Assembly (NCBI GenBank): GCA_050250895.1
Contig: JBFWNU010000003.1
Coordinates: forward strand, 554,842 to 618,841
Length of the DNA stretch: 64,000 bases
Direction of reading: 5' to 3'
DNA from: Vulcanimicrobiota bacterium
Lineage (GTDB): Bacteria > Vulcanimicrobiota > Xenobia > Xenobiales > JADMJV01
Numbering within the stretch: position 1 is the first letter of the stretch; every line of letters starts with the position of its first letter. The notes beneath the pieces are model-generated. The model did not search any database. It saw only the letters and a program-made list of their open reading frames with translations, and had not been told where the DNA came from. Of this stretch, positions 3,172 through 64,000 are shown one piece after another. Position numbers and translations under genes: made by a program.

Positions 3172-4241
3172 GCCGAGCCGAGATTCGGGAAAAGGTGGAA
3201 CTGGCCCCCATGACCACTTTGGGGGTAGGTGGGGCGGCCGACTACTTTACCGAGGTTCGCAGCCCGACCGAGCTGCTCGAGGCCATGCACTGGGCCAAGC
3301 ACAAGAGCCAGCCGGTCTATCTGATTGGGGGCGGCAGCAATCTGCTGGTGTCGGATGCCGGCTTCTCGGGACTAGTAGTCCGCTATGGCGACGACCGGAT
3401 CGAGCGCCTCGAGGTCGATGGCGACCGGGTCTGGCTGCGGGTGGGAGCGGGCCGCAACTGGGATGAACTGGTGGCTCAAACCGTCGCCTGGAATCTGGCC
3501 GGGATCGAGTGCCTGAGCGGCATTCCCGGGATGGTGGGAGCGGCCCCCATTCAGAACATCGGCGCCTACGGCCAGGAGGTGGCCGACGTGATCGAGTCGG
3601 TCGAGGTGATCGAGCGCTCGACCGGCGAGCTGCACCTGATCAGCAATCGGCATTGTGGCTTCGGCTATCGCGACAGCCACTTCAAAGGCAAGTGGAACGG
3701 GCTGTATGTGGTGGTGGCCGTGCACCTCAAGCTAACCGAAGGGGGCTCGCCCACCATCCGTTACGGTGATTTGACTCGCCGGCTTGGGCCGGGGCGGCCC
3801 ACCCTGCAAGAGGTGCGCGACACCGTGCTCGAGGTGCGCCGCTCCAAGTCGATGGTCTATGATACCAGCGATCCCAACCACCGCAGCGCCGGCTCGTTCT
3901 TTACCAATCCGATCGTCGAGGAATCGCTGGCGGATTTGGTCGACGCGCGCTTCGCCGAGGACTCGATGCCACGCTATCCCGCCGAAGGAGGGGTCAAGCT
4001 TTCGGCCGCGTGGCTGATCGAGCGAGCGGGCTTCGAAAAGGGCTTCGTGTTGGGCGAGGCGGGCTTGTCCACCAACCACGTATTGGCTCTGATCAACCGC
4101 GGCGAGGCCACCGCCGAAGACCTGTTGAACCTGGCCAAACTGGTGCGCCGCCAGGTGCGCGAGCGCACCGGAGTGACCCTGGTGCCCGAGCCGAACCTGC
4201 TGGGCTTTGGGGCCGAGGCCTTCGAGCTACTGGGCCGTTAG
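3168..4241 (+). CDS. murB: UDP-N-acetylmuramate dehydrogenase
   Basis: GGGSNLL, GIPGMVGAAPIQNIGAYG, FGYRDS, SAGSFFTNP, LSAAWLIE; ATGA overlap with the PBP gene. Confidence 0.95.
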   Translation: MSRAEIREKVELAPMTTLGVGGAADYFTEVRSPTELLEAMHWAKHKSQPVYLIGGGSNLLVSDAGFSGLVVRYGDDRIERLEVDGDRVWLRVGAGRNWDELVAQTVAWNLAGIECLSGIPGMVGAAPIQNIGAYGQEVADVIESVEVIERSTGELHLISNRHCGFGYRDSHFKGKWNGLYVVVAVHLKLTEGGSPTIRYGDLTRRLGPGRPTLQEVRDTVLEVRRSKSMVYDTSDPNHRSAGSFFTNPIVEESLADLVDARFAEDSMPRYPAEGGVKLSAAWLIERAGFEKGFVLGEAGLSTNHVLALINRGEATAEDLLNLAKLVRRQVRERTGVTLVPEPNLLGFGAEAFELLGR

Positions 4242-4245
4242 CTGC

Positions 4246-4411
4246 TCGGCGCTTCGCGCCGCGCCGCTGGGCCGACTCCTGATGAGCGTCGGCCCGGCCG
4301 CGGCTTGACGGGAACGACGAGAGCGTATGTTCAGGGGATTGGACTGAGGCGTCAGCGGCGCTCTCGTCGCTCCCTATCGGCGCTTCGCGCCGCGCCGCTG
4401 GGCCGACTAGA
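4246..4411. mobile_element. 131-bp structured non-autonomous element: full copy 4281-4411 preceded by a tandem partial copy
   Basis: 32-bp direct repeat at 4246-4277 and 4377-4408 (period 131). Stem GTCGGCCC/GGGCCGAC. 100/127 nt identical, without gaps, to 41772-41898 (manual count). Confidence 0.75.
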
Positions 4412-18287: not shown

Positions 18288-19134
18288 ACTCTTCCAGCCG
18301 ACGGAGCCTCTCCTCCAGGGCCGCCGCGTGCTCGCGGGCGGCCCTTGCTTCGGCCTGGGCCTTTTCGGCTTCGGCCTGGGCCTTTTCGGCTTCGGCCTGG
18401 GCCTTTTCGGCTTCGGCCTGGGCCTTTTCGGCTTCGGCCTGAGCCTTTTCGGCTTCGGCCTGAGCCTTCTCGGCCAGGGCCTGGCTTTGGGCCGCCCGTT
18501 CGGCTCCTGTCAGGAGGAGGTTGCCTTGCTCGTCGCACCACCGCAGCCAGGTCGCCTGGTAGCCTTCGTACTCTCCCTCCCAGGTCGTAAGACCGAGCAG
18601 GGCATCGGGAAGCCATCCCGGCGTCAAGAGGTCGATGTAGCTTCTGCCATTAAGCTGGTAAGCGCGCAGAGCACGACTGCCGTAGCGTTTGAGGGGGTCA
18701 TAGATGATGTAGTATCCGATGCCCTGTTCACCGTAGGTTTTGAACTTGCGTTCGGTTTCTCCGCCTTTGGTGTTGGAGACGATTTCGATGACGATGTCTG
18801 GCGGCTTACCATAGACCCACGTCATGTAAGCTCGGTTGCCCTTCTCCCAAATGTCTGCAGGGAGGCTCACGTCCAAACTGACCATGACATCCGGTACCAG
18901 TGCGGGATTCTTCGGCACGAAGAAGAGGCCGACGTTGGCAAAGGCCACAAACGGCCGTCCCTGCCGCATCTCGTCGCTCCAGGACTCATATAACGACCCC
19001 GCCAGCAGCCGTTGCTGCTTTTCGGAGAAAGGGTTATCCATCGGCTCGTCGTCCTCGGTGATGAGGTGCGAGATATCGGGGACGGGTGGATAGTCGTCCT
19101 GAATGGCTGGGTCCACGGCGGGCTCCTTCGGCAT
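18280..19134 (-). CDS. Uma2 (DUF820) family endonuclease with coiled-coil tail
   Basis: PDVMV, GKPPDIVIEIVS, YYIIYDP, WLRWCD; AEKAQAE repeats. Confidence 0.9.
   Translation of the reverse strand: MPKEPAVDPAIQDDYPPVPDISHLITEDDEPMDNPFSEKQQRLLAGSLYESWSDEMRQGRPFVAFANVGLFFVPKNPALVPDVMVSLDVSLPADIWEKGNRAYMTWVYGKPPDIVIEIVSNTKGGETERKFKTYGEQGIGYYIIYDPLKRYGSRALRAYQLNGRSYIDLLTPGWLPDALLGLTTWEGEYEGYQATWLRWCDEQGNLLLTGAERAAQSQALAEKAQAEAEKAQAEAEKAQAEAEKAQAEAEKAQAEAEKAQAEARAAREHAAALEERLRRLEEST
18347..18472. repeat. In-frame 21-bp tandem repeat x6 (encodes AEKAQAE heptads)
   Basis: Unit GCTTCGGCCTGRGCCTTYTCG at 18347, 18368, 18389, 18410, 18431 and 18452. Confidence 0.95.
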
Positions 19135-40461: not shown

Positions 40462-41370
40462 ATGACCCGTCGCCCCAGATACGTCGAGTTGGCTCTTCTG
40501 GTAGCCGCGGTGGCGGTTTGGGGAGGGAAGGTCTTGGAGCCGGAAGCGGTACCGAGTCCCCAATCGCTACCGGCAAAGTCGAAACCGACCAACCTCTCGA
40601 TTCGAGGGGTCAGGCTGGGTATGTCCCGTGATGCGGTGGTCAAACTGCTCGGTGAGCCTCAGACCGAGAATGCCTACGAGTCTTATCCTGGTCTTGTCGA
40701 GGCTAAGTACGCTGTGTCCTCGGTATTTGGTGACCCGGAAGTGGTCTACGATCCTTCCGGTAGGGTGGTGGGCGTTTCGGGTGCGGCGCTTCAGTGGAAT
40801 TCCGGCAGATTGGTAGTGGGCGACTCCGAGAAGAGCATCCTAAAGTACTTTCCCGCCCCCTCAGCCCAACGTCCAGCATTCTATCACCCTTACTCCCCGG
40901 GCGAGTATGTCTACCCACGGGAGGATCTGGTGGTCGAGACCGATGTCGAGAGCATGTGGAGTTCCCCCCGAGTTTTTCGCGTCTCCCTGCAGGTCCCGTT
41001 CCTTTACTCGATGAGTTCTTTCTGGCAGTCTTCTGATGCGTCCGAGTTGCTCGCCGAAACCGGCCGGACCAGCAGGTCGCAGAACAGGAACACGCTGGGG
41101 AGTGCGGAGGTTGTCGGGTGCTTCTTCTGTGTCGCCATCCTGGACCAGCCGGCACTCATTCAAGAGGATCTTGGCTTCGGCGAGTCGGCAGTCTGCCCCA
41201 CCTGCAAGTGGTCGGCCTTGCTCGCCGGCGACAGGAACGAAATTACGACAGCCTATTTGCAGCAAGTCCACGACGCCTGGTTTCAACCCTATCAGACCTG
41301 CGCCGCCAGACTGACGCCCGGGTCGGCCTCGGGGTCGGGCGCTCAAACGCCTTCACCAGCCGGGAACTAA
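40462..41370 (+). CDS. Hypothetical membrane-anchored protein with C-terminal CxxC/CxxC module
   Basis: TM helix; LGMSRDAVVKLLGEP; GCFFC...CPTC...HDAWF. Confidence 0.55.
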   Translation: MTRRPRYVELALLVAAVAVWGGKVLEPEAVPSPQSLPAKSKPTNLSIRGVRLGMSRDAVVKLLGEPQTENAYESYPGLVEAKYAVSSVFGDPEVVYDPSGRVVGVSGAALQWNSGRLVVGDSEKSILKYFPAPSAQRPAFYHPYSPGEYVYPREDLVVETDVESMWSSPRVFRVSLQVPFLYSMSSFWQSSDASELLAETGRTSRSQNRNTLGSAEVVGCFFCVAILDQPALIQEDLGFGESAVCPTCKWSALLAGDRNEITTAYLQQVHDAWFQPYQTCAARLTPGSASGSGAQTPSPAGN

Positions 41371-41771
41371 CTGCTTGAACTTCCGCGCGGAAGTCATTTC
41401 GCTAGCGAACGAGCGGTGAACGGAAGTTAGCAATTCGCTCGACGGGACGGCCCACAGCCTCGCCGAAGTCGTCACGGCTATTGAACCCGGAGGATGCACG
41501 ACCGCGCCTTGTCTTGCGACGCCATCACGCCCAACTGCTGCGTCGCGCTCACCGCTGCGGTGCTCAAATACAACCAGTATTATCCGCTCCTCGCGGCGCC
41601 CGCTCCTTGCATTTGAGCGCGCTATCGCCGCAATCCGGCGGCCCGACTGCGCATCATCCGGGTTGACGATTCCTATGACTCACCCTGGAAAGACGCGCTA
41701 GTGGACTTCTTCCAGCCTTTCCTGGACTTCTTCTTCCCGGCTATCGCCGATGAGGTCGACTGGTCTCAGCC

Positions 41772-41902
41772 GATGAGCGTCACCCCGGCCGCGGCTTGAC
41801 GGGAACGATGAGAACGCAAGTCCAGGACGCTGAACTGGCGCGGGCGCGACGTTCCCATCATTCCCTACCGGCGCTGCGCGCCGCGCCGCTGGGGTGACTT
41901 AC
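41772..41902. mobile_element. 131-bp structured element inserted in the rpn gene
   Basis: Removing it restores the frame (CAG CCG GTC GAA). Stem GTCACCCC/GGGGTGAC. Homologous to 4281-4411. Confidence 0.85.
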
Positions 41903-42497
41903 GGTCGAATCCCTCGATAAGGAGCTGCGGGCCATCACTCGCGAGGCCGAGAAGGGCCCGCGCGAGTGCGACCTGTTGCTGCAGGTCGGTCTGCTCAACG
42001 GGCAACCCGGGTGGTTCTACTTCCAGGTGGAAGTCCAGGCTCAACATGACAAGCAGTTCGCCCGGCGGGTCTATGTCTACAACTACCGGGTCTTCGACCG
42101 GTTCGGTGAAGATGTCTGCTCGCTGGCAATCCTGGCCGACACCTCGGCCAGTTGGCGACCCGACCGGCACACCTGGCAGCGCTTCGGGTGCAGCCTCGAT
42201 TTCCGCTTTCAGACCGTCAAGCTGACCGACCTGCGGCCCCGCCTGGCCGAACTCGAGACCAGCTCCAACCCCTTTGCTGCTTTCGTCTCCTTCCATCTTT
42301 GGACCCAGGCAACCCGAGGCAAGCCCAGGCAACGCATGACGGCCAAGCTGAGTCTCACCCGAGGCCTCTACCGGAGGGGTCTGTCTCGCGACCAGATTCA
42401 CAAGCTTTGGAGGCTGTTGGATTGGTTGATGACCCTGCCACCTCCCTATGCTTTACAATTCGGAGAAAAGCTGGCAAAGTATGAACAGGAGGACGCC

Positions 42498-42752
42498 GTG
42501 CCCTACATTTGTATGTTCGAACAGAGGGGTATCCAGAAAGGCCTCGAGCAAGGCCGCCAGGAGGGCCTTGAGCAAGGTCTCGAACAAGGTCAACTCGCCG
42601 AGGCGCGGCGCACCGTGATGACGCTCCTAGCCGCGCGCTTTGGTCAGGTGCCAGTGGGGCTCGACGAAACGCTGGCTGGCCAGAGCGACCTCGACGAACT
42701 GCGGCGATTGGCTTTGCGGGCGGCGCAGGTGGAGCGACTCGAAGACTTCTGA
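42498..42752 (+). CDS. Putative internally translated small Rpn C-terminal protein (84 aa)
   Basis: AGGAGG at 42487-42492, then 5 nt, then in-frame GTG (MPYICMFEQRG...). Confidence 0.5.
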   Translation: MPYICMFEQRGIQKGLEQGRQEGLEQGLEQGQLAEARRTVMTLLAARFGQVPVGLDETLAGQSDLDELRRLALRAAQVERLEDF

Positions 42753-46350: not shown

Positions 46351-48275
46351 CGGCGGCGAGTTGTGCGCCGCACAGTGACGATTTGGGAGTGTACGGCGCA
46401 AGTGTGCGCCGCACAGTGGTCATGGTGGTGTGCACGGCGCACATCGGGCTGGCCCGGCCACGTCGGCAGGCCCTGGGCAAGCCAGTTTCGTCGGCGGCGG
46501 CCAGTTGCGGGCCGAGATGAACATAACCCGCCGCCGCCAGCCTGGGCTAGCTGGGTAGCCGACTTCCGCACGGAAGAGCAGCCTCCCCGAATACGGCGCC
46601 ACCTAGTGCCGTACCGCCGTCCGCCAGCCTCACCAGCCCGGCAGGCCCTGGACCAGCCAGGTGGGTCGGCGGCGGCGAGTTGTGCGCCGCACAGTGACGA
46701 TTTGGGAGTGAACGGCGCAAGTGTGCGCCGCACAGTGGTTCTGGTGGTATGTGCGGCGCACATCGGGCAGGCCAGTACGGCGCCACCACGTGCCGAATTC
46801 GGCACCACCTGGTGCCGTACCGCCCCCCGCCAGCCTGGGTAGCCCGGCCACGGTCGCGGGCCGAGCCCACTTCCGCACGGAAGAGCAACCTCCCCGAGTA
46901 CGGCGCCACCACGTGCCGAATTCGGCACCACCTGGTGCCGTCCCGCCCCCGCCACACCCACCGGCCAGCCGCACCCGCCGGCCCGGCCACGGTCGCGGGG
47001 CCAGCCGACTTCCGCACGGAAGAGCAACCTCCCCGAATACGGCGCCACCTAGTGCCGTACCGCCGCCCGCCAGCCTCACCAGCCCGGCAGGCCCTGGACC
47101 AGCCAGGTGGGTCGGCGGCGGCGAGTTGTGCGCCGCAAAGTGACGATTTGGGAGTGAACGGCGCAAGTGTGCGCCGCACAGTGGTTCTGGTGGTATGTGC
47201 GGCGCACATCGGGCAGGCCCGGCCACATCGTCAGGCCCTGGGCAAGCCAGTTTCGTCGGCGGCGGCGAGTTGCGGGCCGAGATGAGCATAACCCGCGGCC
47301 AGCCAGCCTGGGCTAGCGGGGCAGCCGACTTCCGCACGGAAGAGCAACCTCCCCGAGTACGGCGCCACCACGTGCCGACTTCGGCACCACCTGGTGCCGT
47401 ACCGCCCCCCGCCAGCCTGGGTAGCCCGGCCACGGTCGCGGGCCGAGCCCACTTCCGCACGGAAGAGCAACCTCCCCGAGTAAGGCGCCACCACGTGCCG
47501 AATTCGGCACCACCTGGTGCCGTACCGCCCCCGCCACACCCACCGGCCAGCCGCACCCGCCGGCCCGGCCACGGTCGCGGGGCCAGCCGACTTCCGCAAG
47601 GAAGAGCAACCTCGCCGAGTACGGCGCCACCACGTGCCGAATTCGGCACCACCTGGTGCCGTACCGCCCCCGCCACACCCACCGGCCAGCCGCACCCGCC
47701 GGCCCGGCCACGGTCGCGGGGCCAGCCGACTTCCGCAAGGAAGAGCAACCTCGCCGAGTACGGCGCCACCACGTGCCGAATTCGGCACCACCTGGTGCCG
47801 TACCGCCCCCGCCACACCCACCGGCCAGCCGCCCCCGCCGGCCCGGCCACGGTCGGGGGCCGAGCCCACTTCCGCACAAAAGAGCAACCTGGCCCGAGTA
47901 CGGCGCCATCACGTGCCGAATCCGGCGCCACCTGGTGCCGTACCGCCCCCCCCAGCCTGGGCAGCCCGGCCACGGTCGCGGGGCCAGCCGACTTCCGCAA
48001 GGAAGAGCCACTTCACCGAGTACGGCGCCACCACGTGCCGAATTCGGCGCCACCTGGTGCCGTACCGCCCCCCGCCACACCCACCGGCCAGCCGCACCCG
48101 CCGGCCCGGCCACGGTCGCGGGGCCAGCCGACTTCCGCAAGGAAGAGCCACTTCACCGAGTACGGCGCCACGTGCCGAATTCGGCACCACCTGGTGCCGT
48201 ACCGCCCCCCGCCACACCCACCGGCCAGCCGCACCCGCCGGCCCGGCCACGGTCGCGGGCCAGCCAACTTCCGCC
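46351..48275. repeat. About 1.9-kb mosaic array of palindromic modules (not CRISPR)
   Basis: ACTTCCGCA(C/A)GGAAGAGC x11 (some degenerate); nested palindrome around GTGCCGAATTCGGCAC x9 plus 2 short forms; triple TGTGCG(C/G)CGCACA module x3; periods 123-140 bp. Confidence 0.95.
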
Positions 48276-63346: not shown

Positions 63347-63429
63347 CAGCCACGATTCTGCTCGCCCCAGGTCACCTCCTGGCCGGTCCAGCTCCGCTCT
63401 CGGCCGGGCCCTCGCCTCGGCTTGTCGCC

Positions 63430-64000
63430 GGCTCGGCCGGGCTTGGCGTTTGGCCGGGGCGAGTACGGCACCAGGTGGCGCCGAAGTCGGCACGTGATGG
63501 CGCCGTACTCCTCGCCTTGCTCTTCCGTGCGGAAGTCGGCTCGCCGCCAGTTGGCCCGGGCCCGCCAGCTCGCCCGGACGGACAACGACCCGGGGTGGTT
63601 GTAACGCGACTTGCCCCGCTGGCTCGGCCGGGCTTGGCGTTTGGCCGGGGCGAGTACGGCACCAGGTGGCGCCGAATTCGGCACGTGGTGGCGCCGTACT
63701 CCTCGCCTTGCTCTTCCGTGCGGAAGTCGGCTCGCCGCCAGTTGGCCCGGGCCCGCCAGCTCGCCCGGACGGACAACGACCCGGGGTGGTTGTACGCGAC
63801 TTGCCCCGCTGGCTCGGCCGGGCTTGGCGTTTGGCCGGGGCGAGTACGGCACCAGGTGGCGCCGAATTCGGCACGTGGTGGCGCCGTACTCCTCGCCTTG
63901 CTCTTCCGTGCGGAAGTCGGCTCGCCGCCAGTTGGCCCGGGCCCGCCAGCTCGCCCGGACGGACAACGACCCGGGGTGGTTGTACGCGACTTGCCCCGCT
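63430..64000. repeat. About 190-bp tandem array (3 or more units, runs off the window) sharing the palindromic core of the 46-48 kb array, inverted
   Basis: GAGTACGGCACC at 63461, 63652 and 63842, followed by GCCGAATTCGGCAC...GCCGTAC and CTCTTCCGTGCGGAAGTCGGC. Confidence 0.95.

Follow-up and report, generated by a model that had tools for sequence, protein, structure and literature searches.

Several groups of small non-autonomous repeats occur within bacterial genes, among them the ERIC/IRU, Correia and Rickettsia palindromic elements. Another group, the MIRU of mycobacteria, consists of direct tandem intergenic repeats whose ends overlap the stop codons of the neighbouring genes. The locus described here has traits in common with both. 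It lies in a 64,000-nucleotide stretch (the window) of the genome of a Vulcanimicrobiota bacterium, contig JBFWNU010000003.1 of assembly GCA_050250895.1, where an Rpn-family gene is split by a 131-bp insert. Taken jointly with the reading of the split gene as a knockout, the insert is probably one copy of a lineage-specific, non-coding repeat of ~130 nt that folds as a three-way junction.

The Rpn proteins are the closest described relatives of the host gene. Sections of Zhong et al. (2023, PMC10327210) describe a C-terminal domain that is translated separately and blocks the toxic full-length nuclease. The same sections report that Rpn C-terminal domains carry 4-residue repeats in strain-variable number, and that an Rpn protein can protect against phage.

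The split gene and its insert

Coordinates are window positions unless prefixed C1-C10, which denote contigs of the source genome. The gene is composed of three parts.

41647-41772, plus strand: N-terminal fragment of the Rpn-family gene, LRIIRVDDSYDSPWKDAL...DWSQP, with no usable in-frame start; columns 1-42 of alignment A2
41773-41903, plus strand: 131-bp copy of the three-way-junction repeat, through which the upstream frame acquires a TGA stop (41797-41799)
41904-42752, plus strand: remainder of the Rpn-family gene, 282 codons and a stop, encoding the near-invariant D...E-x-Q positions and, in the C-terminal domain, GLEQ/GRQE repeats of 4 residues

The upstream frame reads ...DDSYDSPWKDALVDFFQPFLDFFFPAIADEVDWSQP, continues into the insert-encoded residues MSVTPAAA and ends at the TGA. 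An earlier note on this DNA, made from the letters alone, had already placed the stop within the insert. The downstream frame opens past a TGA at 41895-41897, reads (LT)VESLDKEL... and closes at the stop 42750-42752. Upon removal of the 131 bp a single reading frame is recovered, with the split point between ...DWSQP and VESLDKEL... (codons 42/43). No target bases are missing from the site, and the CG duplication or microhomology amounts to 2 nt at most, in agreement with the claim that deletion of the insert restores the frame without loss of target and with CG common to both junctions. Because CG stands at both junctions, the insert can be placed at 41771-41901, 41772-41902 or 41773-41903.

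The split point is continuous in related genes. Two paralogues, at C2:133532-132543 and C1:3789197-3790087, run across it without interruption, as found by tblastn of both pieces against the source genome. In alignment A2 the N-terminal piece ends at column 42 and the C-terminal piece starts at column 43, and six uninterrupted homologues, out of eight homologue rows, pass the split point with neither gap nor overlap. The alignment also holds a seventh homologue, P0005, an orthologue that starts at the junction. The six ungapped homologues therefore need no insert-encoded residue. Such a need had been named beforehand as the finding that would speak against mobility, and the description of a precise 131-bp insertion that splits the gene is upheld by the same six sequences.

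The insert consists of a 5' head (ATGAGC), a P1 stem (GTCACCCC.../...GGGGTGAC), a long hairpin P2, the short hairpin P3 (CGGCGC-TGC-GCGCCG) and a 3' tail (TTACG). Its computed folding energy is -72.1 kcal/mol (z = -3.4), a stability equalled by one of 200 shuffles. The long closing stem juxtaposes the two ends, which is the fold-back that the earlier note had seen.

The reading frame is shifted and a stop is met eight codons into the insert, and therefore the full-length nuclease is no longer made. Insertional knockout is the best reading of the window locus and a likely one.

Identity of the host gene

The name Rpn holds for the gene at the level of the family and fails at that of the family profiles. 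The downstream piece scores 19.4 bits against PF04754 (Transposase_31; cut-off 21) and 18.7 bits against TIGR01784 (cut-off 52.1), below the cut-off in both cases, and the intact paralogue has no Pfam match at E<=0.001. Two distant paralogues in the source genome lie above the PF04754 cut-off, with 26.8 and 26.3 bits. There are 736 homologues at E<=1e-5, and the source names of some include Rpn family, YhgA-like, YdaD and DUF4351. The source name of P0005 is Rpn family recombination-promoting nuclease, and other homologues carry PF14261 or PF04754. Near-invariant D, E and Q residues occupy columns 65, 85 and 87 of the alignment.

The C-terminal GLEQ/GRQE repeats vary in count among the window gene, P0005, P0002 and P0003. 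The window strain differs from P0005, and from contigs of X3 and X6, by an indel of 24 nt at 42563 that amounts to two of the 4-residue repeats, a difference between close strains of the sort described for RpnS antitoxin domains. The window gene is filed here as a divergent Rpn-family member on the strength of its sequence, and its nuclease, toxic and defence roles are predicted only.

The start region

Two further lesions lie upstream of the insert.

41473-41475, plus strand: ATT where the paralogues have an ATG start (paralogues GGCTATGCC..., window GGCTATTGAA..., GGCTATT...; upstream regions compared directly)
41482-41665, plus strand: 184-bp repeat of another family, directly after the ancestral start position (copies found by blastn; contigs of related strains lack it)

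The 184-bp repeat has 11 blastn matches elsewhere in the genome, for example at C4:79492-79675 with 90% identity, and its ends are imperfectly inverted (GGATGC.../...GCATCATCC). The joint 41481>41666 occurs in contigs of X1, X3 and X6, with GA in place of the repeat. X1 record 1 and X6 record 24 run through 41000-41481, then have GA and then resume at 41666. These contigs thus represent related strains without the 184-bp repeat. The gene has decayed further in the window strain after the insertion, through the ATG>ATT change and the arrival of this repeat at the start. The absence of an ATG, GTG or TTG start upstream, which the earlier note had listed as a caveat, is real and has its explanation in these two lesions.

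A shortened copy of the 184-bp family cleanly interrupts another Rpn paralogue (C1:2989207-2989347). A leader of ~70 nt precedes the start codons of the Rpn-like paralogues in common (window ~41400-41470; ...GCTAGCGAAC...GAAC..AGTTAGCAA.TC...CGACGGG...), and it is also present upstream of the paralogues C2:133k, C2:141k, C1:3788k and C1:3789k. In this conserved leader they may share a promoter, an operator or a leader RNA.

Related strains and the orthologue

Four sequencing runs were compared, all as assembled (Logan) contigs, which drop rare variants. In the run index no run contained half or more of the sampled words, and no RNA run was among those listed. The ~130-nt element, tandem junctions included, is contained in Logan contigs of sludge and wastewater metagenomes.

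X6 record 24 spans 41666-42038 gap-free and therefore carries the 131-bp insert. X2 record 10 spans 41607-42687 with 21 gaps in 1081 nt, and X1 record 1 enters the insert (41666-41893). The contigs crossing the insert come from two wastewater or sludge runs and are ~94-96% identical to the window. P0005, from an NCBI metagenome-assembled genome of Eremiobacterota (the source name also of P0010 and P0036), has its first residues, MVESLD, right at the junction. Its sequence agrees with the downstream piece in 274 of 282 residues, the 8-residue repeat indel aside. At 41902, X1 and X6 carry T for C, which makes an ATG of the ACG codon in the tail; this ATG is in frame with VESLD, and P0005 is annotated from there.

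The exact empty joint of the window gene, by which a DNA switch can be tested, is ...TCTCAGCCG joined to GTCGAATCC.... The contigs of the four runs, which cannot show rare forms, contain no joint 41772>41904 without intervening letters, and the search for an empty junction proposed in the earlier note found none at orthologue-level identity. Joints that skip the insert do exist (41772>41910; X2, X3, X6). They carry GTAACC between flanks that are ~85% identical, and they were ruled out as excision products, being of the paralogue type found at C2:141394 (GCCGGTAACCTCT). A genome of the same genus was rejected as an empty-site reference: its syntenic region is just 68% identical and has a different spacing.

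The repeat family

The source genome is 9.5 Mb long, has a G+C content of 63% and is 99.6% complete. A blastn search with the insert gave 43 matches in it. With nhmmer there were 45 matches at E<=0.01, 32 of them near full length, distributed over ~27 clear loci and two weak matches. An alignment of 21 units, one per locus, was made from the 32 near-full units, omitting the extra units of arrays and two of the three copies in RHS genes.

RNAalifold applied to the 21 units predicts 32 pairs in three helices round a junction: the closing stem P1 (GTCGGCCC.../...GGGCCGAC), the long variable hairpin P2, and P3 (CGGCGC-loop-GCGCCG). Compensatory changes are found in 11 of the 32 predicted pairs; at P1 columns 18/139, for example, the pair is GC in 13 units, AU in four and CG in three. 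It is clear that the element is under selection for its three-way-junction fold. The bases outside P1 vary in sequence and in length (4-9 nt in the head, 1-5 nt in the tail). G.U pairs did not reveal the strand of the fold, since the two helices contradict each other: top- and bottom-strand counts are 25 and 2 in P1, and 0 and 12 in P2.

When the alignment was turned into a covariance model, the source genome yielded 34 matches, whereas 40 relatives, among them one congeneric genome and 14 others of that taxonomic family, yielded none. Nor was the repeat detected in 150 sampled genomes of the phylum, two of which had marginal matches of 37 bits or less. The best match of that scan was rejected as a family member, being an unrelated repeat that has only a CGGCGCTTCGCGCCG hairpin in common. 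A two-block sequence pattern had no match in genome_contigs and none in metagenome_contigs; the 3' block alone matched twice (Bosea and Hydrogenophaga), which is taken as chance. Rfam 15 at gathering scores gave no match in the whole 64-kb window, and at E values up to 10 only noise was obtained on the monomer and dimer, with no intron or ribozyme model. Among the titles listed by full-text literature searches on stop-codon-adjacent tandem bacterial repeats, nothing resembles the element. The family thus seems to be undescribed and restricted to one species-level lineage of an uncultivated phylum.

Copies in other genes

Nine copies lie within genes and represent six independent events. All six hosts are conflict genes: Rpn-family genes account for three events, and DruE-like helicase, HNH-nuclease and RHS-fragment genes for one each. 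The copies outside the window are, besides those in two HNH-nuclease genes, in the following genes.

C1:3788101-3788234: copy in an Rpn-like gene, in a decayed tandem duplicate; sense to the gene
C2:141460-141593: copy in an Rpn-like gene, paralogue C2:141k; antisense to the gene, ~13 target bases replaced
C1:3792877-3793007: copy in the DruE-like (Druantia) helicase gene C1:3790184-3796129 (L043 3684-9630), minus strand, ~1940 codons
L045 1740-3662 (C2), with paralogues on C3 (L046 1402-3381) and C9: RHS fragments with translated element

The preference for rpn genes suggested by the earlier note is borne out: a tblastn search finds ~13 Rpn-like loci in the genome, of which three carry the ~130-nt element; two carry the second repeat family. 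The nearest relative of the C2:141k paralogue in the search, P0003, has an intact N-terminus (...WKDALTDFFQPF...).

The N-terminal part of the DruE-like protein matches the PADLOC DruE models at 7e-75 and the C-terminal part continues those profiles. A search of the PDB with the C-terminal piece gave no match. The gene is split just past helicase motif VI into halves of 1040 and ~897 codons, both open. Across this site the intact homologue P0122 reads ...CLSMA-SSR-PHDLYF..., and the junctions share CG or CCG. A GTG within the P1 stem of this copy is in frame with the downstream half.

In two paralogous HNH-nuclease genes (PF01844) the element occupies the identical site, between CPNP and HIWL.H.I. 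Both genes are also frameshifted elsewhere, where assembly errors are possible. In three paralogous RHS-repeat orphan fragments (PF05593) the unit is a stop-free in-frame stretch of ~44 codons between two YD repeats. The element is in the sense orientation in five of the six events.

That the element is mobile, as the earlier note had proposed, is supported by its many copies, the precise insertion and the presence or absence of copies relative to P0003 and P0122. The catalogue of sites that the note had called for produced the three Rpn events and the restriction of all six events to conflict genes; the identity at the junctions is 2-3 nt. The simplest account of the element's recurrence among Rpn, DruE-like, HNH and RHS genes is that they are dispensable and often toxic conflict genes, whose disruption is tolerated or even rewarded. 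Such tolerance or selection appears preferable to dedicated targeting, though the two are not separable here.

Intergenic copies

Seventeen intergenic loci were examined. This number leaves aside two weak matches, a single 5' fragment and all nine copies within genes. Most intergenic copies form head-to-tail arrays, in which one to three full units stand behind a first unit truncated at a variable 5' point. Solo 3' fragments make up three of the 17 loci. The units inside an array are near-identical, and between arrays they are 10-25% different. They are joined by linkers of 8-12 nt, situated between ...GAC-T and ...TGAGC-GTC, whose sequence differs from array to array. At least two of the "truncated" first units are units interrupted by other repeats (C3:389826-389863 and 390404 onward; the same neighbour is found at C1:1539k).

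The 3' end of the element is constant (...GGGCCGACT). In 12 of the 17 loci it is overlapped by the stop codon of a convergent, opposite-strand open reading frame (ORF) of at least 146 codons, and the junctions are GACTAG in eight cases, GACTCAG in three and GACTTA in one. In five loci the first matched base of the array follows, by 2-29 nt, the end of a same-strand ORF of at least 157 codons, and in two further loci, judged by eye, the stop lies inside a mutated P3 loop. An array of this kind is the second locus of the family in the window.

4247-4408, plus strand: array of a 5'-truncated unit (4247-4277; P3 and the 3' strand of P1), a 10-nt linker and a full unit

It occupies the entire gap between two convergent genes, whose stops are a TAG at 4239-4241 on the plus strand and a TAG on the minus strand overlapping 4407-4409.

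Possible routes of movement

The element encodes nothing and so, we infer, must be moved in trans. In the source genome there is no match to the Y1 transposase of IS200/IS605 elements or RAYT (PF01797) or to TnpB (PF07282), with controls that score, nor to a reverse transcriptase (PF00078, RVT_1) or a resolvase-type serine recombinase, each with a working control. The IS91 Y2 profile also has no match, but its control scored nowhere either. A full-length insertion sequence (IS) with the same ends was not found by nhmmer or the covariance model, which detect only units of 145 nt or less and fragments.

The sole IS110-family transposase (C10:4789-5220) was considered as the mobiliser and rejected, as it sits in a different repeat family and has nothing in common with the element. 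The IS110 gene lies in an element of ~1.55 kb (approximately C10:4646-6197) inserted in another repeat family of ~25 copies. A hammerhead ribozyme was likewise rejected: some linkers contain CTGATGAG, but there is no conservation of the linker, the flanking stems pair together and no Rfam hammerhead is found on the monomer or dimer. None of the hammerhead, twister, HDV and hairpin ribozyme models rises above noise on either. Group I and II intron models have no match by Rfam gathering scores or E-value search, and the unit is only 131 nt long, against several hundred for such introns.

The element entered the window gene between codons 42 and 43 without target loss and with a CG duplication or microhomology of 2 nt or less. 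A folded single-stranded, circular or hairpin intermediate might be opened in the 8-12-nt loop that joins its ends. An enzyme acting in trans might then join it to the target through the 2-3 nt of identity. Copying-in primed at the 3' end is another conceivable route; confidence in each of these steps is low. The clean junctions with 2-3 nt of identity and the variable bases outside P1 point to a structure-guided process rather than classical cut-and-paste, and so do the insertions of units beside one another and the copies truncated at the 5' end whose 3' end is fixed.

Knockout, retained remainder or switch

Of the two possibilities left by the earlier note, simple inactivation is favoured by the two extra lesions and by the retention of the insert in related strains and P0005. 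The excisable switch or splicing loses ground to these same facts, to the antisense copy and to the lack of a ribozyme or intron match. Several observations nevertheless weigh against a plain knockout. The downstream 282 codons are open, with 8 substitutions and the two-repeat indel relative to P0005, while contigs of orthologue type differ by ~3.6-4% in DNA; of the six orthologue-type differences in 41904-42040 four are synonymous, which suggests purifying selection on a gene already carrying the insert. This suggests either that the knockout is recent or that the downstream part still functions. Both halves of the DruE-like gene (1040 and ~897 codons) are also open, and five of the six in-gene events are sense. 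The comparison covered assembled contigs, in which rare excised forms would escape notice, and no enzyme able to move the element was found in the source genome. If the full-length, RpnL-like toxin was lost and the remainder kept, the downstream part would be expressed as an N-terminally truncated protein or, from an internal start, as a C-terminal RpnS-like antitoxin domain, perhaps neutralising paralogous Rpn toxins. This is unlikely. According to sections of Zhong et al. (PMC10327210), an Rpn C-terminal domain with variable 4-residue repeats is made separately as an antitoxin, and the window gene has GLEQ/GRQE repeats with a two-repeat difference from P0005 (the 24-nt indel at 42563). With 8 substitutions over its 282 residues the downstream ORF is conserved, and the C>T change at 41902 in X1 and X6 provides the in-frame ATG from which P0005 is annotated. 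The window strain, on the other hand, has no ATG, GTG or TTG at the junction, its first in-frame candidates being TTG 41976 and a GTG near 42028. The conservation may merely reflect a recent event, and expression of the downstream part is hypothetical.

A return to the full-length nuclease has lower standing. Precise excision at the DNA level, by CG-CG replication slippage over the hairpin or by a recombinase, would restore the nuclease in a subpopulation. The ends are indeed joined by a 14-17-bp stem with CG on both sides, and at another locus a copy is present in one strain and absent in another (C2:141k and P0003). A mended junction would nevertheless not restore the window gene, since its start is ATT followed by the 184-bp repeat. 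Orthologue-level contigs from two runs retain the insert, the insert-skipping joints are paralogue-like (GTAACC, ~85%), and a 2-nt repeat is very short for slippage, which makes such a switch very improbable. Removal from the mRNA, in which a tiny intron-like element would be cut at the base of P1 by itself or by a host nuclease and ligase, is hardly credible. The sense orientation of five of the six in-gene events and the structure conserved with covariation would fit it, as would the restoration of the frame by exact removal, which holds for the window gene and also, if CG or CCG is counted as overlap, for the DruE-like gene. Against this, Rfam yields no intron or ribozyme match beyond noise at E up to 10 on the monomer or dimer, and the RHS copies are simply translated in frame. 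At C2:141k the element lies antisense in place of 13 target bases, and no sense-strand ribozyme could remove it there. The head and tail beside P1 are variable, the G.U pairs favour neither strand, and most copies are in intergenic arrays. A bolder proposal is a new structure-dependent mobile element that homes to stop-codon ends and to its own 3' end without the usual enzymes, enters conflict genes by preference and locks them reversibly. Homing would then produce the arrays with a 5'-truncated first unit, and the silenced conflict genes would stay intact since the element could be removed at the DNA or RNA level. We regard this as quite unlikely, and insertional knockout remains the preferred reading.

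Other repeats in the window

Tandem arrays of other families, with periods of ~122-139 and 190 bp and a GGTGCCGAATTCGGCACC-type hairpin in common, lie at 47424-48274 and 63426-64000. Related arrays are found at many sites, and short structured tandem repeats are unusually abundant in this genome. A 21-nt tandem repeat (6.1 copies, 98% matches) occupies 18347-18474.

Comparison with known systems

The window gene resembles the Rpn genes with an intragenic antitoxin (PMC10327210) in its N-terminal D-x-x-W-K region, its D...E-x-Q core and its variable 4-residue C-terminal repeats. It differs from described Rpn proteins (YhgA-like, Transposase_31) in belonging to a divergent branch, with profile scores under the cut-off and a toxicity that is only predicted here.

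Knockout of a gene by a small repeat is in itself ordinary. All in-gene copies are in conflict genes and thereby offer a natural data set on a possible preference of small repeats for silencing toxic defence genes. Should excision or splicing be demonstrated, the element would represent a new type of genetic switch.

With MITEs (miniature inverted-repeat transposable elements) and other small repeats the element shares a length of ~130 bp, the non-coding character, an imperfect 17-19-bp inverted repeat, tens of copies and an occasional position in ORFs. The inverted repeat P1 is, however, subterminal, there is no target-site duplication beyond 2-3 nt, and at C2:141k 13 bases were replaced. Unlike MITEs, the element also forms head-to-tail arrays with a 5'-truncated first unit, and its 3' end lies on stop codons. 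The terminal inverted repeats with a fixed-length duplication and the parent IS with the same ends that define a MITE, a derivative of a DDE-transposase IS, are thus missing. Its in-frame translation in the RHS fragments is a further trait held in common with the small repeats that occur within genes.

Like the REP, BIME and REPIN sequences, which RAYT transposases of the IS200/IS605 Y1 type mobilise, the element is a GC-rich extragenic palindrome found between convergent genes after their stops, with a hairpin kept by compensatory change. In contrast to them, its arrays are direct and not alternating, it forms a three-way junction and not one or more simple hairpins, and the genome has no Y1 transposase. 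Neither a Y1 enzyme (RAYT or TnpA) nor TnpB, one of which a REP/REPIN or a relic of IS200/IS605 calls for, is encoded in the genome, and the reverse transcriptase and self-cleaving ribozyme of a retrozyme-like or retron-like element are also lacking.

Like MIRU, the element forms direct tandem arrays of units of ~50-140 bp whose ends overlap the stop codons of flanking genes. It departs from MIRU in that its arrays stand between convergent genes, its units are strongly structured, and single clean insertions within genes also occur. Its anatomy fits none of the MITEs, REPINs, IS200/IS605 relics and retroelements, and the family is an undescribed variant of the small bacterial repeats, with an unusual anatomy and an unusual choice of targets.

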